Virus record (IMG/VR): IMGVR_UViG_2648501669_000002
Coordinates: 1-27,386 of that record
Strand: one strand, 5' to 3'
Length of the DNA: 27,386 nt
Source: a virus
Taxonomy: Duplodnaviria > Heunggongvirae > Uroviricota > Caudoviricetes
This document shows positions 1-12,271 of the stretch, piece by piece (position 1 is the first letter of the stretch; each line of letters starts with the position of its first letter). The position numbers and the translations under genes are program-made. Under the pieces are notes generated by a model, which was not told where the DNA came from, made no database searches, and saw nothing but the letters and a program-made list of their open reading frames with translations.

Positions 1-149
1 CGGGGACGTGGGGAGACCGTCATCCCCGGTTCAAAGCTCTGCTGAACAATTGCGATCTTTTCCTGTGTGGTACGCCGTCTGCGTTTCTCCGGCCCTAAGA
101 CATCAATCATCTGTTCTCCAATGACTAGTCTAAAAACTAGTATTAAGAC

Positions 150-169
150 TATCACTTATTTAAGTGATA
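150..169. promoter_or_regulatory. Operator-like inverted repeat TATCACTT-N4-AAGTGATA upstream of the 210..485 ORF
   Basis: Read directly: 8-bp perfect arms with 4-bp spacer, about 40 nt upstream of the ATG at 210; adjacent ACTAGT palindromes at 124-129 and 136-141. The TATCAC half-site resembles lambdoid repressor operators (from memory). Confidence 0.4.
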
Positions 170-209
170 CTGGTTGTCTGGAGATTCAGGGGGCCAGTCT
201 AGATTTATC

Positions 210-485
210 ATGAGCAACATCAAGAATGTCAAAGAAACAACAAACGGTACATGTACTGAAGATAACATCAAGCCCTACATTTATGCCGGCCTATGTACTG
301 ATGAAGAGTTGATTGATTTTCTGGAAGTCGTTGTAGCTGAATTGAAATGCCGCAACAGGTTACCACTAAGACAACAACAATTACGGCATGAATTAAAAAA
401 CTACCAAGCTGAAATAGATAGAAACAATGAGTTTCTTAATTCAGTCGTGTATCGGCAGGATAAAAATCCCAAGCAGAATCCTTAA
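210..485 (+). CDS. Hypothetical small protein (91 aa) in AT-rich insert
   Basis: First in-frame ATG of track ORF 174..485 (the track start is a TTG). Long ORF in AT-rich DNA, where chance ORFs are rarer. No clear SD; predicted coiled-coil-like C-terminus. 3' end overlaps the convergent gene 436..903 by 50 nt. Confidence 0.4.
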
Positions 486-903
486 AATGCAACAGACTTT
501 CATCTTCATAACTTAAATCAGGCACTGGAGATGAGAGCTCGTACTTATAAAGAATCTGGATACGCTCGGATACATGCTCTGGTATTACATATGCATTAAT
601 ATCATTCCAGAGAACAATAAGTATGTCATGGAGACACATATTTTTGGCATCAGACAATGAAACGCCCTTTTGGGTGAAAAGATAATGATAAAGCACATTT
701 TTCCCGAAGAGGACTACGCACTTGGAATCAATATTTCTTCGATACTCGACAAGTAACAAATCCAATTTAAGGAGAATCAATGCTCGAGTAGCAACAAATG
801 CTGAGTTGGCTGTTTCTTTATCCAGCACCTCACGATAGGTTTTAGCAACTCGCTCGTAGTGTTTTTCAAAAATTCGCAGACACACAGAAGCATCTAATTC
901 CAT
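436..903 (-). CDS. Hypothetical protein (155 aa) in AT-rich insert
   Basis: In-frame Met 51 of track ORF 436..1053 (MELDASV...) preceded on the minus strand by AAGGAG with good spacing. Visibly AT-rich compared with the rest of the window. No family recognised. Confidence 0.55.
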   Translation of the reverse strand: MELDASVCLRIFEKHYERVAKTYREVLDKETANSAFVATRALILLKLDLLLVEYRRNIDSKCVVLFGKNVLYHYLFTQKGVSLSDAKNMCLHDILIVLWNDINAYVIPEHVSERIQILYKYELSSPVPDLSYEDESLLHFKDSAWDFYPADTRLN

Positions 904-996
904 AACAACTCCTTTGTGGTTAGTTGAACACGCGCCCTTTACAGCCCCTTCAAGACTGCGGGCGGTGGAAAAATACCACAAAACCATGCGCCGGGC

Positions 997-1395
997 ATGG
1001 CTAAAACCCGGCACAAATTCGCAACAGCAGCAGGATATTTTTGTATGAAGCAACGACGTAATTCTTCACAGCAGCGATTCCGCAACGGGGCGGAACGCCA
1101 CGCTAACCGCTTCGCTACCAGTGCATCACGTAGCAGCTCTCGCTACAGCCTGAGCGAAACGCACGCAACACCAGACGGACACGCTGTAAAACAAATCGGC
1201 GAGCATACCTGGCTGATTGAGAAAGCTGGAATCGTGGTCCACAAATGCCCGCGCAATCCGTTTACCGGAAACCGCATTTTTGCTCTGAGCAGCGGCGACA
1301 ATCAGTTCGGGCAGGATTTCACATTATACGAAGCGCTTCGCACGGTTGATCGTCTGCTGCGTGGACAGAGTTTTATTAAACAGGCTGATTTATAA
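997..1395 (+). CDS. Hypothetical protein (start uncertain)
   Basis: Track ORF of 132 aa. N-terminal third is low-complexity and basic and no convincing SD precedes 997, so the true start may be internal (ATG at 1045 or a later GTG/TTG). The C-terminal half looks protein-like. Confidence 0.35.
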   Translation: MAKTRHKFATAAGYFCMKQRRNSSQQRFRNGAERHANRFATSASRSSSRYSLSETHATPDGHAVKQIGEHTWLIEKAGIVVHKCPRNPFTGNRIFALSSGDNQFGQDFTLYEALRTVDRLLRGQSFIKQADL

Positions 1396-1405
1396 CAGGT
1401 GCTTT

Positions 1406-1693
1406 ATGACTAAAGACCATACTCAAGGTGTATTTATCCGCTTTATTGATTTTCGCGGTGAACTGTTATTACGCGCATCCGCTATTGATGGAGTGGCTCC
1501 GGCGGGGAAAAACGGAGCCGACGAAGCCACTTACGTTTATCTGAACGGCACGCGACTGATCGTGGAACTTCCGTACCAGACCGTACGCGAAATCATTAGC
1601 GAAGCTGAAAAGGCTCGTCAGGTTAATGGCGATAAACCCTATATCGAAATTATCTGTATGGATTCAGAAGCTGAAATCCAGAAGGCAGATTAA
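1406..1693 (+). CDS. Hypothetical early protein (95 aa)
   Basis: In-frame Met 21 of track ORF 1346..1693 (MTKDHTQGV...), directly after the stop of the preceding ORF at 1395; weak SD (AGGTG). Confidence 0.45.
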   Translation: MTKDHTQGVFIRFIDFRGELLLRASAIDGVAPAGKNGADEATYVYLNGTRLIVELPYQTVREIISEAEKARQVNGDKPYIEIICMDSEAEIQKAD

Positions 1694-3336: not shown

Positions 3337-3540
3337 ATGAACAAAAAGACCTGGTTTCGCGCATACATGTGGGCGCTGGTATGCGTCCTCGTTTCTCTCA
3401 TTCTGTATGCAGGACTACTCCCCCGAATGATTTCATCAGACAGCTCCTTCCTGGTATTGCTGGGCATTTTCATTGCCATGCTGTACCCGGCAGGCGTTGT
3501 TCGCCTTTTCAGTAGGTACATCAAGGAAATCAAACAATGA
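3337..3540 (+). CDS. Small membrane protein (67 aa, two predicted TM helices)
   Basis: Track ORF with AAAGGA SD. Two hydrophobic stretches (WALVCVLVSLILYAGLL and FLVLLGIFIAMLYPAGVV). Stop overlaps the start of the SPFH gene (ATGA at 3537-3540). Confidence 0.55.
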   Translation: MNKKTWFRAYMWALVCVLVSLILYAGLLPRMISSDSSFLVLLGIFIAMLYPAGVVRLFSRYIKEIKQ

Positions 3541-4367
3541 AGAAATTCAAACTCTTTCAGATTCTCCCGCTTTTTGCTGCCATCCTGCTGGTTGGTTGCG
3601 ATCGCGTTGAGCCAGGTAATGTGGGCATCAAAGTCAACAAACTGGGCGACGACAAAGGCGTCGGTGAAGTGGTTGGCGTTGGACGCTACTGGACAGGCTG
3701 GAATACAGAGGTTTACATCTTCCCAACCTTCAAACAAATGAAGACCTACGATGAGCCGTTCAGCTTTCAGATGAGTGACGGCACAACCATCGGCTATCAC
3801 ATCGGTGTGGCCTACAAGGTTGATCCATCCAAAGTTACTACAGTGTTTCAGACCTACCGCAAAGGCGTGGATGACATTACCGACACTGACCTGCGCCAGA
3901 AGATCGCCGACGCACTCAACCGACTGGCCAGCAAAATGACCACCGATAAATTTATCGACGGTGGCAAGTCTGAACTGCTGGATTCAGCACTTAAAGACAT
4001 TCAGGAGGAAATGACACCTATCGGCATTCAGGTAATGAGCCTCTCTTATGTCGGTAAACCGGAATACCCACCAACCGTTATCGACAGCATTAATGCCAAA
4101 GTTACGGCAAACCAGAAAACCCTGCAACGCGAACAGGAAGTCAAGCAACGTGAAGCAGAAGCCAACATGTTGCGCGCAGAAGCTGCCGGACAGGCTGATG
4201 CCATTCGCACAAAAGCCCAGGCTGAAGCCGACGCCATTCGTTTGCGTGGTGAAGCTCTGCGCCAGAACCCCGGCGTTATGGAGCTGGAAGCAATCAACAA
4301 ATGGAACGGCACGCTGCCGCAATACATGACCAGTAATACTGCTGTTCCGTTTGTTCCGGTGAAGTAA
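3537..4367 (+). CDS. SPFH/band-7 (prohibitin/HflK-like) domain lipoprotein
   Basis: Track ORF of 276 aa. N-terminal signal peptide with lipobox (LLVGC). Central region plus a Q/E/A/R-rich coiled-coil tail (QREQEVKQREAEANMLRAEAAGQADAIRTKAQAEADAIRLRGEA) is typical of SPFH proteins. Confidence 0.7.
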   Translation: MKKFKLFQILPLFAAILLVGCDRVEPGNVGIKVNKLGDDKGVGEVVGVGRYWTGWNTEVYIFPTFKQMKTYDEPFSFQMSDGTTIGYHIGVAYKVDPSKVTTVFQTYRKGVDDITDTDLRQKIADALNRLASKMTTDKFIDGGKSELLDSALKDIQEEMTPIGIQVMSLSYVGKPEYPPTVIDSINAKVTANQKTLQREQEVKQREAEANMLRAEAAGQADAIRTKAQAEADAIRLRGEALRQNPGVMELEAINKWNGTLPQYMTSNTAVPFVPVK

Positions 4368-4581: not shown

Positions 4582-4719
4582 TCCATGTCACTGTCAGAAG
4601 ATTAACCCATGTACACACAAAAAAACCGCTTGCCATGCCGTAATCAGTCAGGTTACATTTCCGCTGCACCTCATAAAACGGGTGCCGGGTTTCGCAGCCT
4701 GCTGACAACCAAAGCGCAC

Positions 4720-4740
4720 AACCGCGCCAGCGGTTTTTTT
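4720..4740 (+). terminator. Candidate rho-independent terminator
   Basis: Read directly: stem AACCGC/GCGGTT with GCCA loop, followed by a 7-T run (AACCGCGCCAGCGGTTTTTTT). Confidence 0.5.
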
Positions 4741-4752
4741 GTGCGTACTGTA

Positions 4753-4781
4753 TTGCCACGTCTTTTTCGCACACGAATTAT
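4753..4781 (+). promoter_or_regulatory. Candidate sigma70 promoter (TTGCCA-17 nt-AATTAT)
   Basis: Read directly; predicted start site falls at the 5' edge of the structured GC-rich element. Not scored computationally. Confidence 0.35.
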
Positions 4782-4788
4782 GGCGGGG

Positions 4789-4850
4789 CGTACGGGGCCG
4801 ACTTCGGTCGGGCCGGGTTCTTTGGTTGCCGGTACTGCGAACCCCGTACG
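4789..4850 (+). other. GC-rich nested stem-loop element (possible structured 5' leader, small RNA or protein-binding site)
   Basis: 9-bp inverted repeat CGTACGGGG (4789-4797) / CCCCGTACG (4842-4850) enclosing a 5-bp stem with UUCG tetraloop (4798-4811) and CCGG-containing dyads; non-coding in any convincing frame. Confidence 0.3.
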
Positions 4851-4919
4851 TCTCGCCACCCACAGTTTCGCAGCTCTGGATGGTGAGTTTTCAAAACTTA
4901 CAACCAAAGAGGCCACCCC

Positions 4920-5150
4920 ATGGCAAACCGCAAACAGCACCGCGCTATCGCGGAGCGTCGTCACATCCAGACTGAAATCAACCGCAGACTTTCCCGCGCA
5001 TTCCGCGTCGCTAAAATCATGCACATCAATATGCTGCATGAGCGTAGCTGCGAACTTTCAAACCTCTATTCATCCGCTGTTTTCAGCTATCTGGCGGATG
5101 ATCTGCGCGAGCTTCAGCAGCTCATCCAGCAGCAAAACAAACTCCATTAA
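4920..5150 (+). CDS. Hypothetical small basic protein (76 aa)
   Basis: Track ORF with AAAGAGG SD 7 nt upstream; first gene downstream of the promoter and leader candidate. Confidence 0.45.
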   Translation: MANRKQHRAIAERRHIQTEINRRLSRAFRVAKIMHINMLHERSCELSNLYSSAVFSYLADDLRELQQLIQQQNKLH

Positions 5151-5222
5151 TTCCTGTTCCGGGCCTTTCCTGCACCTTGCGGCGGGAGGCCTTCGCACAT
5201 CTGTAGTAAAGAGAATTGCAGC

Positions 5223-5612
5223 ATGATTGACGCTCATGACTTCACAAGATGGGTGCGGACACAGGACACCCGTCTGGCTCCCGTTCTTCAGGGATTATTT
5301 GATCTTTACATCCGTGGTCGTGACAACAGAGCACGCACTACAAAACCGGAGAATGCGGACACCCTTTATTTCACAGTAGACGACTGCTACCGCGTGGACT
5401 TCACACCACACGGGCTGGCGTTGCACTGCCTGACACCACACGGCGAATCACTGCTGGCGTATTACGACTCCCCGGCCTCCGTATTCGCGGCAATGCTGGC
5501 GCATCGCACTGCTGGCGGGTGTGCCTCGCTGAGTGAATACACCGCTGAATTTAACCGCCTTTCCGCCATCTTCTCGCAGGAGTGGCAGCGCGTGACGGGA
5601 TACCAGCCATGA
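5223..5612 (+). CDS. Hypothetical protein (129 aa), translationally coupled to gpA
   Basis: Track ORF with AAAGAG SD; stop overlaps the ATG of the replication gene (ATGA at 5609-5612). Confidence 0.55.
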   Translation: MIDAHDFTRWVRTQDTRLAPVLQGLFDLYIRGRDNRARTTKPENADTLYFTVDDCYRVDFTPHGLALHCLTPHGESLLAYYDSPASVFAAMLAHRTAGGCASLSEYTAEFNRLSAIFSQEWQRVTGYQP

Positions 5613-8434
5613 GCGAGTTTGCATGGAGCTGGAATGAACCACGACCAGCCATTGATCCGGCCAGATTTACGGAGCGCAGGCAGGAAACTGAAACCGACCT
5701 GCAACGCGCCATCCGTTACTACCTTGAGGCAGACAAAAGGGCACAGGAAGAACAGGAAGCGAAGGAAGAAGCCTTTTTCGCACAATCCGCCATGGGTAAA
5801 AAACTCATGGCATCCCTTGAGGAAGCCGGACAGCGTGAAAAGCTGGCACAGAGCATCATCAGTAAGCGCCGGGCAACAGAACAAGACCCAGTAGCCCGTG
5901 CCTTTGCTACACTAAAGGCACTACCTGTTTATCTGCGTGAACCACTGAGCCGCCACCTCTCTTTCCTGCGCAAAAAACAGGAAGCCGATCGCCAGAAAGG
6001 CAAAAAGAGCTGGCAGGCGGAACGCTATGCACGCGGAACCCTGCGCAAAATATTCGAACGTCTGGATCGCACTGACGGACGCTGGCTGACACCGGGTTAT
6101 CGCTCCCTTGCCGGGCGCGAACGCCTGGACGATTTGCTTTACCTGCCGCAGCTCAACAAGCACCAGATACAGACGCTGGCCACCATGATCGCGGCGATGT
6201 TCAGCAGCACCTTCGAAACACTCTGCGATGGCTTTGGTGCCAGAGATGGCGAGCTGACCATGGATGTAATGTTGAAGGCTTACCGGATGCTGGCTCGTAT
6301 CGCATTACGCCTGCACATCATGCCGCCACATTACGAAGCCCTGAACAAGAGCGAACCGGATACGGAACTGCTGCCGGGTGCAATCCTTCGCCTGACCTGT
6401 GCGGACTGGTGGAAACGCAAACTGTGGCTGTTACGTTGCGAGTGGAGAGAAGAACAACTCCGCGCCGCCTGTCTGGTTTCCAGAAAAACATCGCCTTATC
6501 TGAGCCAGGACGCGTTAAGCGAGTTTCGCGCACAGCGCGAGAAAACACGCGATTTCCTGAAAAGTTTCATGCTGGAAAACGAAGACGGGTTCACGATTGA
6601 TCTCGAGACAGTGTATTACGCGGGAGTAAGTAACCCGGTTCACCGTAAGGCAGAAATGATGGCCACCATGAAGGGGCTGGAACTTCTGGCTGAAGCCCGT
6701 GGTGACAAAGCGGTGTTTCTGACTGTCACCTGCCCGTCAAAATACCACGCAACAACGGAGAACGGTCATCCGAATCCCAAATGGAACGGGGCCACCATGC
6801 GCGACTCCAGCGATTACCTGGTTAACACGTTTTTTGCGGCGGTCCGCAAGAAACTGAACCGCGACGGCCTGCGCTGGTATGGCATCCGCACGGTGGAGCC
6901 TCACCATGACGGCACCGTGCACTGGCATATGATGGTCTTTGCCCATCCGGAAGAAATCGACACCATTGTGTCCCACACCCGCGATATTGCCATTCAGGAA
7001 GATCGTCACGAGCTGGGCGATGATATTACTCCGCGCTTTAAGGCGGAGTATGTAGACGGCTCAAAAGGCACGCCAACCAGCTACATCGCCACCTACATCG
7101 GAAAGAACCTGGACAGCCGCGCCGTGGATGGCATCGACCCGAAAACGGGCAAGCCACGCGTTGACCACGAAACAGGAAAATCAATGGCCGAGAGCGTGGA
7201 GCGCGCCATCGGCTGGGCGCGCCTTCACCGGGTCCGCCAGTTCCAGTTCTTTGGCATTCCCTCCCGTCAGGTGTGGCGTGAACTCCGCCGCCTTGCCAGC
7301 CAGATGGCACGCAACCCGGAAGGCCAGCAACGGCTGAAGGATGACGCAATGGACGCGGTTCTTGCTGCCGCTGATGCCGGATGTTTTGCCACCTACATTG
7401 AGAAACAGGGCGGCGTACTTGTTCCACGCAAAGACTACCTGATTCGCACCGCCTACGACCTCGCAGATGAGCTGAACGATTACGGTGAACAGAGCGTACA
7501 GATTTACGGGATCTGGTCGCCGCTCATCGGGGAGTCTTCCCGCGTATGTACACATCCGGATAACTGGAAGCTGGTAAGACGCAAACCGGAAGCGGGAGAC
7601 AGCGCCCGCGAAAATGGTTTTGACCTTCAGGGCGGCCCTGCCGCCCCTTGGACTCATGGCAATAACTGTCCCCGTGTACAGGAAACAGGCAACAGCGGGA
7701 CAGAACTGTCGGAAGAGCAACCAACACCGTGGCCGCAGATCCCTGACAGCGTTGATGTGGATGAATGGATGCGCTCACTGAAACGGCACGAACGCCGGGC
7801 GCTGATGCGTTCGCTGCGTGACAAACAGGCAAAAAACAGCAGTGATGAAATGCAGAGCTGGACACAGAGCCGCAAACAGCCGCGACCTTTGCCTGATAAC
7901 CACGAGTTACTCGCTAAAGAATGGCGGGAGTCTGCTGAATCTCTCGGCCTGCATATTGGTGAACAGCAGATGCAGCACCTGTTACGGGGCGGCAGTCTGT
8001 ACGTTGACGGCAGCATCATTGCACCGCAGGGATTTGAAATTGTACGCAAACCGGATACCCGCCCGGACAGCCGAATCACGCAGCTCTGGCAGCGCCTGAG
8101 CCGTAATCACGGCGTAAGCAGCACGGAGATCCGCCATAACCCGGTCGCCAGTTATCTGGAACAGCTAGGGGCATCAGACCCCGAAGCCGCCGCACGCCTG
8201 GCATCCACACTTCAGCAAGACCAGAACACCATGAAAACACCCGTTACCGTGCTTTCTGACATGCTGCGCGCCATCCGTGACGCAGAGCACGCACAGAGAA
8301 TCAGTGAAACCACTGAACGCGCCCGCCGCAAAGCAAACCTGCTGCGGGGTGGCCTGACCAGTGGAAACAAAAAACAGACAGAAACGGGATTCACAAATCC
8401 CGTAAATGAGCAAAAAACGCGCCGCGATATATGA
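5609..8434 (+). CDS. A: Rolling-circle replication initiation endonuclease, P2 gpA family
   Basis: Track ORF 5582..8434 (GTG at 5582; ATG at 5609 coupled to the upstream stop is preferred). Contains the HUH-type motif VEPHHDGTVHWHMMVFAH and a paired-tyrosine segment TSYIATYIGKN, as in the P2 gpA endonuclease domain, plus an FLTVTCPSKYH motif. At 941 aa it is longer than P2 gpA (about 760 aa, from memory). Confidence 0.85.
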   Translation: MSEFAWSWNEPRPAIDPARFTERRQETETDLQRAIRYYLEADKRAQEEQEAKEEAFFAQSAMGKKLMASLEEAGQREKLAQSIISKRRATEQDPVARAFATLKALPVYLREPLSRHLSFLRKKQEADRQKGKKSWQAERYARGTLRKIFERLDRTDGRWLTPGYRSLAGRERLDDLLYLPQLNKHQIQTLATMIAAMFSSTFETLCDGFGARDGELTMDVMLKAYRMLARIALRLHIMPPHYEALNKSEPDTELLPGAILRLTCADWWKRKLWLLRCEWREEQLRAACLVSRKTSPYLSQDALSEFRAQREKTRDFLKSFMLENEDGFTIDLETVYYAGVSNPVHRKAEMMATMKGLELLAEARGDKAVFLTVTCPSKYHATTENGHPNPKWNGATMRDSSDYLVNTFFAAVRKKLNRDGLRWYGIRTVEPHHDGTVHWHMMVFAHPEEIDTIVSHTRDIAIQEDRHELGDDITPRFKAEYVDGSKGTPTSYIATYIGKNLDSRAVDGIDPKTGKPRVDHETGKSMAESVERAIGWARLHRVRQFQFFGIPSRQVWRELRRLASQMARNPEGQQRLKDDAMDAVLAAADAGCFATYIEKQGGVLVPRKDYLIRTAYDLADELNDYGEQSVQIYGIWSPLIGESSRVCTHPDNWKLVRRKPEAGDSARENGFDLQGGPAAPWTHGNNCPRVQETGNSGTELSEEQPTPWPQIPDSVDVDEWMRSLKRHERRALMRSLRDKQAKNSSDEMQSWTQSRKQPRPLPDNHELLAKEWRESAESLGLHIGEQQMQHLLRGGSLYVDGSIIAPQGFEIVRKPDTRPDSRITQLWQRLSRNHGVSSTEIRHNPVASYLEQLGASDPEAAARLASTLQQDQNTMKTPVTVLSDMLRAIRDAEHAQRISETTERARRKANLLRGGLTSGNKKQTETGFTNPVNEQKTRRDI
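8384..8403. repeat. Palindrome ACGGGATT-CACA-AATCCCGT (copy 1, inside the 3' end of gpA)
   Basis: Read directly: perfect 8-bp arms. Confidence 0.45.
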
Positions 8435-8509: not shown

Positions 8510-9469
8510 ATGAAAATTTGTATCGACGACGGCTCCACCAACATCAAGCTGGCATGGACTGAGAACGGCGAACGCCGCAACGCCATCAGCCCGAACAGCT
8601 TCAAGTCGGAATGGTCAGCGCCGTTCGGTGGCACGCAGCCCGCGAACTACATGCTTGATGGCGTGCGCTATGGTTTTGATCCGGTCAGCGATCGCTTTGT
8701 CCAGACGACCGACACGCAATACCAGTACAGCGATGTGAATGTTATTGCCATTCATCATGCGCTGGTCAAATCAGGCATCACACCACAGGAGGTGGATGTG
8801 GTTGTCACCCTGCCACTGAGCGAGTATTTCGATACAAACGCACAGCCGGACATGGCCAACATCAGCCGCAAAAAAGCGAACGTTATGCGCCCGGTGGAGT
8901 ACCAGAACGGCGAAGCATTCACTATCCGTAACGTGCGGGTTATGCCTGAATCCATTCCGGCAGGCTTTAAAGCACTGGCTGACATGAGTCCGTTTGAATC
9001 CCTGCTGATTGTGGATTTGGGCGGAACCACGCTGGATGTGGCAAAGGTTCAGGGGCAACTGGCAGGTATCAGCCAGGTGTTTTGCGATCCACACGTAGGC
9101 GTTTCTCTGATGGCCGATGCCGTGCTGTCGGTGATGGCCACCAACGGTATGCGTACCAGTCACCACATCGCTAATACCATTATCGAACATCGCCACGATG
9201 AAGCCTGGCTGCGCCAGCACATCCACAATGACGCGCATTACGCCAGCCTGATGGCAGTTATTCGTGAAAAGGAGGAAACACTGAAACAACGCGTGATCCG
9301 CGCGCTGGCGGGTTTTTCGGGTTACGGGCGGGTGATGGTTGTCGGTGGAGGGGCGGAGATTGTGGCACCCGCCATCCGCGAAGCCTGCGGAGTTAATGCG
9401 ACTTTCATCGCGGACGGGGTGCCACAGTTTGCTCTGGTTAATGGGCTGTACGCAATGGACAAGGAGTAA
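8510..9469 (+). CDS. parM: ParM-like actin-type segregation ATPase
   Basis: Track ORF of 319 aa. N-terminus MKICIDDGSTNIKLAW closely matches plasmid R1 ParM (MLVFIDDGSTNIKLQW, from memory), with further ParM-like segments (ISPNSFK, QYSDVNVIAIHHAL, DLGGTTLD). AAGGA SD. Confidence 0.85.
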   Translation: MKICIDDGSTNIKLAWTENGERRNAISPNSFKSEWSAPFGGTQPANYMLDGVRYGFDPVSDRFVQTTDTQYQYSDVNVIAIHHALVKSGITPQEVDVVVTLPLSEYFDTNAQPDMANISRKKANVMRPVEYQNGEAFTIRNVRVMPESIPAGFKALADMSPFESLLIVDLGGTTLDVAKVQGQLAGISQVFCDPHVGVSLMADAVLSVMATNGMRTSHHIANTIIEHRHDEAWLRQHIHNDAHYASLMAVIREKEETLKQRVIRALAGFSGYGRVMVVGGGAEIVAPAIREACGVNATFIADGVPQFALVNGLYAMDKE

Positions 9470-9899: not shown

Positions 9900-10286
9900 G
9901 TGTCTTACGTTATGAATGATCAAGATTATGGGCTTGATACCCTATTGGATATGCACGGCTACCAGCACCACATGGATAATGGCTACTGGTGGAAGATTGA
10001 AGCCTACCGGGTCAGCCCAAGCCCATTCAGACCCCACGGGATACGTTACAATCTGACATTACATGACCAGTACAATTCCCGCATATTTGGGATGGATAAT
10101 GCTCATGGAATAAAACCACCGAAGAAGGGCCGTTTCACAGGGAAATTAACTGTTTACGACCATGTGCACCGCACAACATTTGACAAAGGCTATCCCTATG
10201 AATTCATTTCTGCGGAACAGCTTTTATCTGACTTCTTCGATAACGTAGATCGCATCATTGACGAAATCACAAGGGGGAATCAATGA
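9900..10286 (+). CDS. Uncharacterised protein (128 aa), candidate toxin/effector of a two-gene module
   Basis: Track ORF (GTG at 9900; first ATG at 9912). AT-richer than flanking phage genes. His/aromatic-rich segments (HGYQHHMDNGYWWK, YDHVHRTTFDKGYPYEF). Stop overlaps the start of the next gene (ATGA at 10283-10286). Confidence 0.6.
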   Translation: MSYVMNDQDYGLDTLLDMHGYQHHMDNGYWWKIEAYRVSPSPFRPHGIRYNLTLHDQYNSRIFGMDNAHGIKPPKKGRFTGKLTVYDHVHRTTFDKGYPYEFISAEQLLSDFFDNVDRIIDEITRGNQ

Positions 10287-10660
10287 AAGCCCGTATCGGG
10301 ATTATCCCTGAAAATATCCTCCGCCAGCGGCTACTGGATGTCGCCAGAGGAAAACGTAAACCACTGCCAGATGAACCAAAAGTATGGTTTTCTTCACTGC
10401 ACGCTGTAGGGCAAGCTCTGAGTAACGAAAACATTGCTCTGTTACGTCTGATGGATGAAGAAAAACCTCAAACAATGACAGAGTTGGCAGAAATGTCAGG
10501 CAGGAAACTGAGCAATCTTTCAGTAACCTTAAAAATGCTGAGCGGCTACGGTTTTGTCAGCCTGGAAAAGAAAGGCAATACCATTCTCCCGAAAGCATTA
10601 TTCACCGATTTTGAAATCATCATTGATCCATCTGTCGGAACCACTCATCGGGCCGCCTGA
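10283..10660 (+). CDS. Winged-HTH DNA-binding protein (125 aa), candidate antitoxin/regulator
   Basis: Track ORF. Segment PQTMTELAEMSGRKLSNLSVTLKMLSGYGFVSLEKKGNTI has a MarR/wHTH-like helix-turn-helix-wing pattern; translationally coupled to the upstream ORF. Confidence 0.65.
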   Translation: MKARIGIIPENILRQRLLDVARGKRKPLPDEPKVWFSSLHAVGQALSNENIALLRLMDEEKPQTMTELAEMSGRKLSNLSVTLKMLSGYGFVSLEKKGNTILPKALFTDFEIIIDPSVGTTHRAA

Positions 10661-10850: not shown

Positions 10851-10891
10851 CCCGGAACGGGTGCGCAAATTCTTTGTGCGCCCGTTCTGGG
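10851..10891. terminator. Long hairpin, probable intrinsic terminator between convergent operons
   Basis: 19-bp arms (CCCGGAACGGGTGCGCAAA / TTTGTGCGCCCGTTCTGGG) with a 3-nt loop. The three mismatches are G-U wobbles in plus-strand RNA. On the minus strand the hairpin is followed by a U-rich tract (complement of AAAAACAAGAAAA, 10838-10850), 23 nt downstream of the ogr-like stop. Confidence 0.5.
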
Positions 10892-10913
10892 TTGGACAAG
10901 CGAAGCGCGTCAG

Positions 10914-11171
10914 CTATCCAGCCTGCAACAGCTCCAGCGCCATCTGTTTTTCTTCCGGGCGCATCCGTTCAATCAACAGCTTTAACACACCGTTATCCAG
11001 CCCGCTGGGCACCAGTGTGTGCGAGTAGGTCAGATTCATCACCCAGGTATGTCCGCACTCGAGACGGGTGCAACGGTAATACACATCAGCAAACTGATCG
11101 GTTTTCCAGGCTGTTTTCTCAATCACTGCACGAGCACCACAGCAATGACACCGCGCTTTCTGTCTGCGCAT
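10914..11171 (-). CDS. ogr: Ogr/Delta-family zinc-finger late transcription activator
   Basis: In-frame Met 24 of track ORF 10914..11240, preceded on the minus strand by GGGAGGTGGAAA. Cys pattern C-x2-C...(23 aa)...C-x4-C (CHCC...CTRLEC) matches the P2 Ogr zinc-finger topology (CPLC...CQNVNC, from memory). Confidence 0.7.
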   Translation of the reverse strand: MRRQKARCHCCGARAVIEKTAWKTDQFADVYYRCTRLECGHTWVMNLTYSHTLVPSGLDNGVLKLLIERMRPEEKQMALELLQAG

Positions 11172-11236
11172 TTTCCACCTCCCGGAACAACGTTTTACTG
11201 CTGCTGATTTTACCCGCTCCTTCTCCATGTCGCACA

Positions 11237-12271
11237 TCACTCCGTGGCTTCATTAAATTCAAGAATAAATTCCACCTGCCCCAGTCGCCTGATATCAGGG
11301 TCACTATTGATTCCCTCCATAATCAGGCGGCGCATCGGAATAACCTCATCTCTGTAATATGCCTCGCGGGATTTCAGCGGATCACCAAGCCCGGCCGTAT
11401 TTGCGGGAATGATGCCGGCAAGTCCGGGTGGAAAACGGTGCGCAACGAGCTGATCCTGGGCACTGATGGTTTTTATATTCAGGAATTCATCTTTTGTACC
11501 TGAATCCCCGATAGGGATCACCTTAACGCCTTCTTTGTCTCCGCCAGGTATATTGATAAACATGGATTTAAAATTGCCCGCCCCTTTTGACGCCTCTATC
11601 TTTTTACGGAATTCCGCCTCGAGCTCGGGATCCATGTCCGGGTCAGTGGAATACAGGATATAACCAAGATGTGCGCCGTTCTTGTAATACTTGCGGCGAA
11701 AGCGGGTGGCATCCACATTCAGCATGGCAGATTCCATCCCGTGAATATAATCCGGGACACCGTAAACCTGCTGTTGTGGGTCATAAATTGCCACGAACAC
11801 CACTTCGCCTGGCGGGTAAACGAGATCTTCCAGTGCCGCCTGCACAATCACCGTGCCACCTTCGTTGTTGCGTCGCAGGTACAGAGAAGGCAACGTATGC
11901 AGGCGCACCACCCGCCCGAAGCCATTGCGCACTTTAAGCAGCCCCATATCCCCGAATATCAGCAGATTGGTCACTGCTGCCGCCATGGCGGCGTGTGTCA
12001 TACCACCACCACCCCGAAAACCCTGCATGATCATATTCACGCGCGCACGCAATACCGCGCCGTGATACGGTGCGATATTGGACAACATGGCGAGATCCAT
12101 GCGCTCAATGGGCGGCGTGTACCAGCCGTTATAGCCATCCCAGAGCGAGCCGTAATAACAGCCCCATGCAGCGACCGGTTCCGGGTCACCAAATTCAATA
12201 AACGTCATTTTGCTGGCTGTTTTTTTTGCCACGCCATCGTGTAACACGGGGTATTTTTTCTTTTTACTCAT
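11237..12271 (-). CDS. Q: Portal protein, P2 gpQ-like
   Basis: Track ORF of 344 aa, the same length as P2 gpQ, directly downstream of and overlapping the terminase ATPase gene on the same strand, in the conserved P2 Q-P arrangement. Confidence 0.85.
   Translation of the reverse strand: MSKKKKYPVLHDGVAKKTASKMTFIEFGDPEPVAAWGCYYGSLWDGYNGWYTPPIERMDLAMLSNIAPYHGAVLRARVNMIMQGFRGGGGMTHAAMAAAVTNLLIFGDMGLLKVRNGFGRVVRLHTLPSLYLRRNNEGGTVIVQAALEDLVYPPGEVVFVAIYDPQQQVYGVPDYIHGMESAMLNVDATRFRRKYYKNGAHLGYILYSTDPDMDPELEAEFRKKIEASKGAGNFKSMFINIPGGDKEGVKVIPIGDSGTKDEFLNIKTISAQDQLVAHRFPPGLAGIIPANTAGLGDPLKSREAYYRDEVIPMRRLIMEGINSDPDIRRLGQVEFILEFNEATE

Follow-up and report, generated by a model that had tools for sequence, protein, structure and literature searches.

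The 27,386-nucleotide (nt) stretch of DNA considered here (IMG/VR virus record IMGVR_UViG_2648501669_000002, positions 1 to 27,386; hereafter the window) is a P2-like prophage, and its early (lytic) operon carries an accessory cassette at ~214-1032, between a cox-family gene and the DUF4761 gene. This cassette is composed of a leftward gene of the ECs1072 family (436..903, minus strand) encoding a protein of 155 amino acids (aa), the non-coding leader of this gene, and a convergent rightward partner gene (210..485, plus strand) encoding 91 aa. The two genes are a co-inherited module, and the leader is shared with a series of unrelated leftward genes in other phages. From the arrangement of these sequence elements, and by analogy with the Tha/Ith pair of staphylococcal prophages, it is tentatively proposed that the leftward gene may be expressed during lysogeny and that its partner, carried by the lytic operon, may be a matching neutraliser, a proposal whose chances we place somewhat short of even.

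The original prediction, made from the letters of the window alone, had described an AT-rich insert at 120-930 holding a convergent pair of overlapping open reading frames (ORFs). The pair was recovered exactly as described, with a 155-aa ORF on the minus strand and a 91-aa ORF on the plus strand sharing 50 nt at their 3' ends (436-485). The compositional break was likewise borne out: the guanine + cytosine (GC) content of 202-935 is 0.381, against a mean of 0.532 (standard deviation 0.037, minimum 0.418) for 1,027 windows of the same size in 1001-27386, none of which is as low, and third-codon-position GC is 0.34 and 0.38 in the two ORFs versus 0.61 in gpA. The predicted borders had to be redrawn. 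Bases 120-201 (82 bp) belong to the insertion sequence IS2, bases 202-213 are the end of cox, and the right edge is located at ~1032, because insert-less relatives regain homology to the window only at ~1033-1038. A conserved non-coding stretch (904-1032, ~100 nt) thereby belongs to the insert.

Comparison with related prophages supports the other part of that prediction, namely that this DNA is horizontally acquired cargo. In most related E. coli P2-like prophages, the segment is absent and the DUF4761 gene is found 11-38 nt after cox; similarity to the window starts at 1078 in one group of insert-less relatives, and another relative carries a small 68-aa gene at the cox|DUF4761 junction in place of the insert. 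Among 5,426 complete E. coli genomes, only two contain 80% or more of bases 100-1000. The direct cox|DUF4761 junction in most relatives and this rarity in E. coli identify ~214-1032 as a genuine accessory insert. Its composition is foreign, and the gene pair recurs elsewhere, both in a lambda-like prophage and at further junctions in the early regions of P2-like phages; the two ORFs show conservation, and no core lysogeny gene is matched by either protein. The cassette is itself mosaic. Its 91-aa gene is nearly identical to that of the relative L001, and its ECs1072-type gene is much closer to those of L002 and of Escherichia albertii L015 (synonymous divergence, pS, of 0.06) than to that of L001 (pS 0.17), which implies recombination inside the cassette. 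The IS2 end, the named protein family, the co-inheritance of the two genes and the conserved leader common to other cargo genes had all escaped the original prediction.

The 155-aa protein had been thought to match no recognised family. It is a full-length, prophage-encoded member of NCBIfam NF033230 (ECs1072 family phage-associated protein), with a score of 111 bits (E = 4.6e-32) for a cut-off of 70 and with residues 8-154 aligned to profile positions 3-141 of 142. This family is labelled "hypothetical equivalog" and its function is not known. Within it, the window protein is part of a P2-like subfamily whose relationship to the lambdoid founder is remote (hhalign probability of 70% for the founder against the P2-type profile). 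The family is small and confined to Enterobacterales: 24 clusters were obtained by a profile-seeded word search, and 64 representatives at E <= 0.001 by an exhaustive HMMER search of 1.84 billion proteins. A scan of genome contigs yielded four loci only, and a tblastn search of 50,697 phage records with the 155-aa protein returned no match. The AlphaFold2 model, built from 24 sequences, is entirely alpha-helical (predicted local distance difference test, pLDDT, 89; predicted template modelling score, pTM, 0.87). This model has no Foldseek match to viral structures (BFVD) reaching E = 1 and no fold match in the PDB; a profile search of PDB sequences was also without match, and searches of Pfam, PHROGs and PADLOC gave nothing of use, with a chance-level match to Cas7f in PADLOC (E ~0.01).

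The protein is mildly acidic (isoelectric point 5.5), is not a membrane protein and evolves under purifying selection, as judged from a ratio of nonsynonymous to synonymous changes (pN/pS) of 0.33-0.47 where relatives differ. Its gene is antisense to the early operon and has the direction of the repressor and integrase genes of intact relatives. The strong AAGGAG site that had been predicted ahead of it is present as a Shine-Dalgarno sequence (complement of 909-914, minus strand), 5 nt upstream of the ATG and preceded by a CA-rich linker, and AAGGA is invariant across eight aligned homologous loci.

For the 91-aa protein, the absence of a recognised family stood in so far as it has no Pfam match; it corresponds to the conserved core (~65 residues) of an unnamed family. 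Profile searches retrieved 39 uncharacterised homologues of 50-203 aa, none with a Pfam match, and no useful match to the 91-aa protein was found in PHROGs, in PADLOC or in a profile search of PDB sequences. The core follows the pattern P-x-I-[FY]-x-G-x-L-x-D-x-E-L-x-x-[FW]-L and continues into a long helix, which in the AlphaFold2 model is the single element formed (residues 31-79; pLDDT 77, low pTM), as would be the case for a protein whose folding takes place on its target. Purifying selection has also acted on this ORF (pN/pS 0.26 versus L002). Its gene is in the sense of the early lytic operon, and its start codon overlaps the stop codon of cox (ATGA), an overlap of ATG and TGA which is also found in L001. 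Longer relatives of the partner add N-terminal domains, reaching 202 aa in E. coli L002 and 153 aa in Enterobacter and Salmonella, and forms made of the core alone (69-110 aa) are found repeatedly, in Yersinia, Erwinia, Serratia and Brenneria. Derivation of the 91-aa ORF by decay from the 202-aa form of L002, as a deletion remnant, was considered and rejected, given the recurrence of core-only forms in these four genera. The intact partner ORF of L001 (NZ_CM143727.1, 5009-5284) is conserved yet unannotated in RefSeq.

The association of these two genes extends well outside E. coli. ECs1072-type homologues with 27-48% identity were examined in Enterobacter, Salmonella, Serratia, Erwinia and Brenneria, and the 3' overlap with the partner is 50 nt in Enterobacter, 50 in Salmonella, 98 in Serratia, 53 in Erwinia and 23 in Brenneria, the Enterobacter and Salmonella homologues having kept an overlap of exactly 50 nt at ~45% identity. 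At every P2-like locus, the ECs1072-type gene follows the direction of the repressor and integrase genes and the partner follows that of the early operon, the junction being located between the repressor gene and cox in the phages of Enterobacter, Salmonella and Brenneria, and downstream of cox in those of E. coli, Erwinia and Serratia. Of 76 non-redundant loci tabulated, 16 have the partner core, each time with a convergent ECs1072-type gene, whatever the N-terminal domain of the partner (E. coli type, Enterobacter type or none) and whatever the junction. Eight genera have the pair in P2-like prophages, and E. coli O157:H7 Sakai has it in the lambda-like prophage Sp4. In the window, the 50-nt coding overlap (436..485, both directions) holds no terminator-like hairpin, and neither folding nor a simple promoter/terminator scan revealed a terminator-like site between the convergent genes. 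With an overlap conserved at 23-98 nt, antisense cross-regulation of the pair, which had been suggested at the outset, is plausible from the sequence. In the Brenneria rubrifaciens copy (L013, 5574-7540), most of the partner gene has given way to an element of the IS21 family.

The founder of the family, ECs_5703 (formerly ECs1072), is located in Sp4, antisense between the cII-position gene and the replication gene. A partner-like ORF which is unannotated converges on it (L106, NC_002695.2, 19168-19677); its product starts MSNDKKLTLSVYENSPHIWRGGLSDVELAEWL and matches the partner-family profile with an hhalign probability of 90% (E = 1.5e-6). A perfect TATAAT is present 38 nt upstream of the ECs_5703 start, within the 5' end of the replication gene. 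ECs1072 is also listed in a microarray table, with signal on arrays of the Sakai lysogen (PMC2241611).

Such conservation speaks to the simplest alternative, that the window holds only chance or degenerate ORFs in the AT-rich spacer of a decaying, defective prophage. The prophage has indeed been hit by IS2, and the cassette is rare in E. coli. Conservation of both proteins in at least eight genera with pN/pS below 0.5, a confident structure model, the conserved gene arrangement and the covarying leader helix described below nevertheless refute this explanation, whose probability is next to nil.

Upstream of the ECs1072-type start codon, ~100 nt are better conserved than the protein itself. On the leftward strand, this leader is made, in order, of a dyad, a -10-like motif, a helix, the CA-rich linker and the ribosome-binding site. 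The dyad, TGTGCCGGGT-N9-GCCCGGCGCA (987..1015, minus strand), is near-invariant in the alignment of loci and contains a second inverted repeat, CCATG-N7-CATGG (984-1000), whose arms are changed in a compensated manner to CCACG/CGTGG in one Brenneria copy. The extended -10-like motif TTTTGTGGTAnTTT (970..978, minus strand; TGgTATTTT, for TGnTAnnnT) is kept in most loci having the element; it is defined by resemblance to the consensus and is accompanied by no -35 hexamer, for which reason a simple promoter scan flagged nothing at the leader. On leftward RNA, the dyad would form a stem of 10 bp capped by a loop of 9 nt, with a U-rich tail behind it, and could, from its sequence, act as an insulating terminator. 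Its assignment as an activator site of P2 late promoters (TGT-N12-ACA), as a Cox box or as a repressor operator was rejected on informal comparison, as its sequence does not fit the patterns of these sites.

The helix (929..967, minus strand, the acting strand being ambiguous) has a folding energy of -20.9 kcal/mol in the window (z = -3.2), and 33 of 56 leaders fold better than their shuffled versions at z < -2. Among 26 diverse leaders, seven of nine helix pairs have changed on both sides, with a covariation score of 0.249, compared with 0.110 in shuffles (none of 500 reaching the observed value) and 0.05-0.12 when the pairing partners were slid. Read on the leftward strand, the helix contains 17 C·A versus 6 G·U cells, an excess which suggests that its pairing is slightly favoured in early RNA or in DNA. 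No Rfam match was found in window 1-1500.

As a search handle, the exact 17-mer CCATGCCCGGCGCATGG was found in 82 IMG/VR contigs, of which ~75, of P2 size, carry the full element. It is also present in isolated phages, namely SEN4 and SEN5 of Salmonella and vB_YpM_115, vB_YpM_117 and vB_YenM_42.18 of Yersinia. The element is rare in E. coli (17 of 5,426 genomes) and occupies at least three different junctions of the early region, always antisense to it.

The same leader heads ~20 unrelated leftward genes (27 clusters, several of them artefactual). Most of their products are 58-95 aa long, and a few of ~155 aa have predicted membrane helices. A cargo of 92-94 aa (loci L026, L043, L070 and L089) falls just under the Pfam threshold for the GhoS antitoxin endoribonuclease (20 bits for a threshold of 21), and L092 encodes a zinc-ribbon protein of 75 aa that scores 33 bits against PDC-M14A, a candidate family of PADLOC, the only PADLOC match of any strength. 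Two copies of the element stand in tandem in L048 (885 nt apart) and in L074 (~690 nt apart), each with its own leftward gene, from which it would seem that cassettes can be stacked. A recurrent cargo family of ~153-161 aa (L024, L037, L048, L065, L077, L093 and L094) has hydrophobic segments resembling membrane helices; its gene is sometimes preceded by a very short acidic ORF (MADDDDNKFHRLHKPAP...), and no match to it was found in Pfam or PADLOC.

The properties of the leader bear on a different explanation of the cassette, according to which it is a control element of the lysis-lysogeny decision. The leftward transcript would itself act on the early operon by collision and antisense pairing, and may read on into cox and the repressor-integrase genes, the two proteins being secondary or serving as regulators of the switch. 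Transcripts of this type have precedents, since the lambda oop RNA, a 77-nt non-coding RNA located at the cII-O junction, acts on cII, and phage 186 has a leftward pE transcript. As with oop, the leftward unit of the cassette starts from the head of the next early gene and overlaps the upstream early gene by ~50 nt at its 3' end, and the founder gene of Sp4 is located at the very junction of oop, running leftward from the beginning of the replication gene and convergent with the gene on the cII side. Cassettes of the Enterobacter and Salmonella type lie in the switch region itself, between the repressor gene and cox. The leader is more conserved than any cargo protein and common to unrelated cargos, and the arrangement of its motifs, -10-like but with no -35 hexamer and with the dyad covering the -35 position, is that of a promoter controlled by an activator or a repressor. 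In contrast to oop, the leftward unit encodes a conserved protein of ~150 aa which is under selection, the gene that it faces is not cII, and Rfam gave no match. Conservation of both proteins down to ~27-45% identity under purifying selection, and the restriction of the partner core to the neighbourhood of ECs1072-type genes, which a role of the RNA alone does not need, also argue against this explanation, as does the fact that most P2-like phages run their switch without the cassette. It is regarded as unlikely, if still worth keeping in view.

The gene facing the leftward cargo varies in a modular manner. In 69 of the 76 non-redundant loci, an ORF in the early sense ends between -330 and +80 nt from the stop of the leftward gene; clearly called facing pairs are found at ~-100 to +63 nt, with typical values of -50, -7, -4, 0, +9 and +21. 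In the two best-sampled phage groups, the facing proteins share their N-terminal part (..ALLERLETLKNEKPHQKLLLVFPGKPQVEISIDYHEL.. in the E. coli group and MVMKHEGRGEGFCCRYASAG.. in the Enterobacter group), and their C-terminal part varies with the leftward gene. The exchangeable unit thus consists of the C-terminal module, the leftward gene and the leader, and it is flanked by two conserved stretches. Both the window and L001 lack the N-terminal domain, and the core of their partner begins at the stop codon of cox. It is possible, though doubtful, that these features represent an undescribed cassette-exchange system of the early operon of P2-like phages (Peduoviridae), with the dyad/leader and the N-terminal part of the facing gene as anchors between which matched pairs would be swapped, the leftward gene being expressed in lysogeny and the C-terminal module controlling it. 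If so, each of the ~20 leftward families would be an effector, for defence, exclusion or switch control, with a built-in life-cycle off-switch, and the dyad would be the putative binding site of a shared regulator.

A modular early gene could alternatively be the active component, the cassette being counter-defence or anti-satellite cargo in which the early partners would, for example, inhibit host defences or P4-like satellites from the onset of infection, and the leftward genes would be their antagonists or regulators in the lysogenic phase. Genes of the partner type are indeed first or second in the early operon, and their rapid turnover, with N-terminal domains conserved within groups and variable C-terminal ends, is of the type characteristic of arms-race genes. 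Searches returned none of the known anti-defence families, however, and the window and L001 have kept the core beside the ECs1072-type gene in spite of having no N-terminal domain. Only a small probability is attributed to this explanation.

Cargo that varies at a fixed place of a conserved P2-like backbone is well documented for the accessory and defence hotspots that P2-like phages carry between gpA and the portal gene (old/tin) and at Z/fun (Rousset et al., 2022, PMC9122126; Egorov et al., 2024, preprint; NAR 2026, PMC13586616). The present insert is not at these classical positions but upstream of gpA, in the early operon beside cox. It further differs from hotspot cargo by being antisense to an essential operon and by a conserved leader and a matched facing-gene module, features of which the hotspot papers mention none. 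The interval between int and gpA is reported as a minor hotspot, with 8% of the recognised P2 defence systems (PMC13586616). This, and the position of the cassette beside the immunity region, provides a modest prior for a role in exclusion or defence.

The proposal that a lysogeny-expressed gene is paired with a neutraliser in the lytic operon can be formulated as follows. In the lysogen, the early promoter Pe would be repressed and only the leftward gene would be transcribed, from its own leader; the ECs1072-family protein would then act in the lysogen, most likely in exclusion of, or abortive defence against, other phages, or else through an activity that would harm lytic growth. During lytic growth, transcription from Pe would cross the cassette, collide with and pair against the leftward transcript, and yield the partner, whose long helix would bind and neutralise the ECs1072-family protein already present, so that the phage would escape its own gene.

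This scheme is reminiscent of the Tha/Ith "noncontiguous operon" of S. aureus prophages described in phage 80alpha, in which a defence gene expressed in lysogeny is turned off on induction by an antisense gene of small size that overlaps it (Rostol et al., 2024, PMC11087260). The larger protein is inhibited by the product of this small gene, and the phage thereby escapes its own system on induction; the defence gene is part of the operon of the repressor, and a constitutive promoter of its own drives the inhibitor (PMC11087260). Similarly, the genes of the window lie on opposite strands, overlap by 50 nt and adjoin the lysogeny switch beside cox and the repressor, and an accessory gene and a small gene would, in the proposed scheme, belong to units active in opposite states of the life cycle. 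In contrast, the window pair has no sequence or fold relation to Tha/Ith, with no domain or fold match to a HEPN RNase; the putative inhibitor is carried by the lytic operon, with a separate leader for the larger gene; and the phage family and the host are different.

Several observations weigh against this proposal. Expression of the leftward gene in lysogeny is suggested by its orientation and by a consensus-like -10 motif only, at a leader where the promoter scan was empty, and the leader helix, although ambiguous, is in slightly better agreement with the rightward (early) strand than with the leftward one. Neither protein of the pair matches a known defence model in PADLOC-DB 2.0, nor was a clear match to such models found for ten sister cargo proteins in Pfam and PADLOC, and a size of 58-95 aa suits regulators or antitoxins as well as effectors. 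In addition, ECs1072-type genes are not invariably paired: in Rahnella bruchi (L017, 4968-5438), a lone copy is found beside lactate-utilisation genes with neither a prophage nor a partner, and a distant member in a Salmonella lambdoid prophage is antisense in the leftward early operon by kilR, again without a partner.

The prophage of the window has also been interrupted by IS2 immediately ahead of the cassette. The left end of this element of the IS3 family (1..201, minus strand, outside the cassette) is the only part of it present, its terminal inverted repeat ending at 201, a terminus read from the sequence, and the start codon of orfA/insC lying at 110-108 on the minus strand. Both the terminal sequence and orfA identify bases 1-201 as IS2, to which thousands of matches of 92-97% annotated as IS2 or IS3-family transposase correspond, their ends falling at window ~213-229. 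An IS66-type element was ruled out for this edge, as the search matches are to IS2. The first base of the window probably lies at an assembly break within IS2. Homology of a cassette-bearing relative to the window starts at 202, just past the terminus of IS2, and bases 202..213 (plus strand) correspond to the final four codons (12 nt) of a gene of the cox family truncated by IS2, with a TGA stop at 211-213; in L001, a 175-aa gene annotated as "transcriptional regulator / Cox family" ends at the equivalent of 213. IS2, in minus orientation, thus sits 12 nt ahead of the cox-family stop codon and cuts off the early promoter region from the remainder of the operon, so that the prophage is probably defective. 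As the partner is separated from Pe, the proposed switch is probably broken here.

This disruption is informative for a further explanation, that of an addiction or stabilisation pair similar to a toxin-antitoxin system, which would combine a toxic protein with its antidote and would keep the prophage in the cell or punish leaky early transcription. As in type II systems, the pair is small, co-inherited and strictly cognate, and combines a globular protein with a short helical one, of the kind that wraps a globular target; the near-threshold GhoS score of a sister cargo is in line with this possibility. In the window, however, the partner is probably uncoupled by IS2 and yet the ECs1072-family gene is intact, which is hard to reconcile with an unopposed toxin. 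Classical type II systems are moreover co-transcribed bicistrons, whereas the genes are convergent in all loci and would belong to oppositely regulated units, and no toxin or antitoxin fold or domain was detected in the window pair by profile and fold searches. This explanation is considered rather improbable.

To the right of the cassette, the DUF4761 gene (1045..1395, plus strand; PF15958, 234 bits) is the first core early gene and marks the cassette boundary, its annotated start in relatives being equivalent to window 1045. It is followed rightwards by genes for DUF4754, a MarR-like protein, an SPFH/Band-7 protein (276 aa, 3537-4367), an Ash-family protein (205 aa, 4609-5226) and the replication endonuclease gpA (5582-8434), and then by the portal, terminase and capsid genes of the P2-like backbone. 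The early operon contains a second AT-rich dip at 1900-2300 (GC 0.36-0.39), which may be another variable spot; the two closest relatives lose similarity to the window at 2129 and 2161, and a 136-aa ORF at 2150-2560 has no Pfam or PADLOC family match. The classical cargo hotspot between gpA and the portal gene is occupied by a gene for a 319-aa ParM/StbA actin-like plasmid-segregation protein (8510-9469; Pfam StbA_N 274 bits, ParM_N 230 bits), an unusual cargo for an integrated P2-like phage. Downstream of it, a winged-helix protein of the HVO_A0114/MarR type is encoded at 10283-10660, and no family match was found for the nearby ORFs at 9900-10286 and 10874-11503.

The general idea of prophage accessory genes under antisense control has precedent, and the ECs1072 family is named but uncharacterised. 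In an incomplete search of the literature, no description was found of the locus, of the conserved leader, of the matched modular partner or of the breadth of unrelated cargo. The available part of a transcriptome paper on BTP5, a P2-like Salmonella prophage, concerns a 186-like phage and mentions no such cassette.

A consistent genomic niche has been defined for the ECs1072 family, antisense in early lytic operons by the immunity region, and partner genes that had remained unannotated have been flagged, one in the O157:H7 Sakai reference genome and the 91-aa ORF in NZ_CM143727. The 17-mer and the leader provide a simple search handle, a single scan having led to ~20 families of small uncharacterised proteins with candidate cognate partners. 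These cassette families represent a list of candidate effectors and neutralisers for phage exclusion, abortive infection and lysis-lysogeny control. If the proposed logic is true, the cassette would be a counterpart, in the P2 family of gram-negative hosts, of the Tha/Ith answer to prophage autoimmunity, built from unrelated parts and packaged as an exchangeable cassette.

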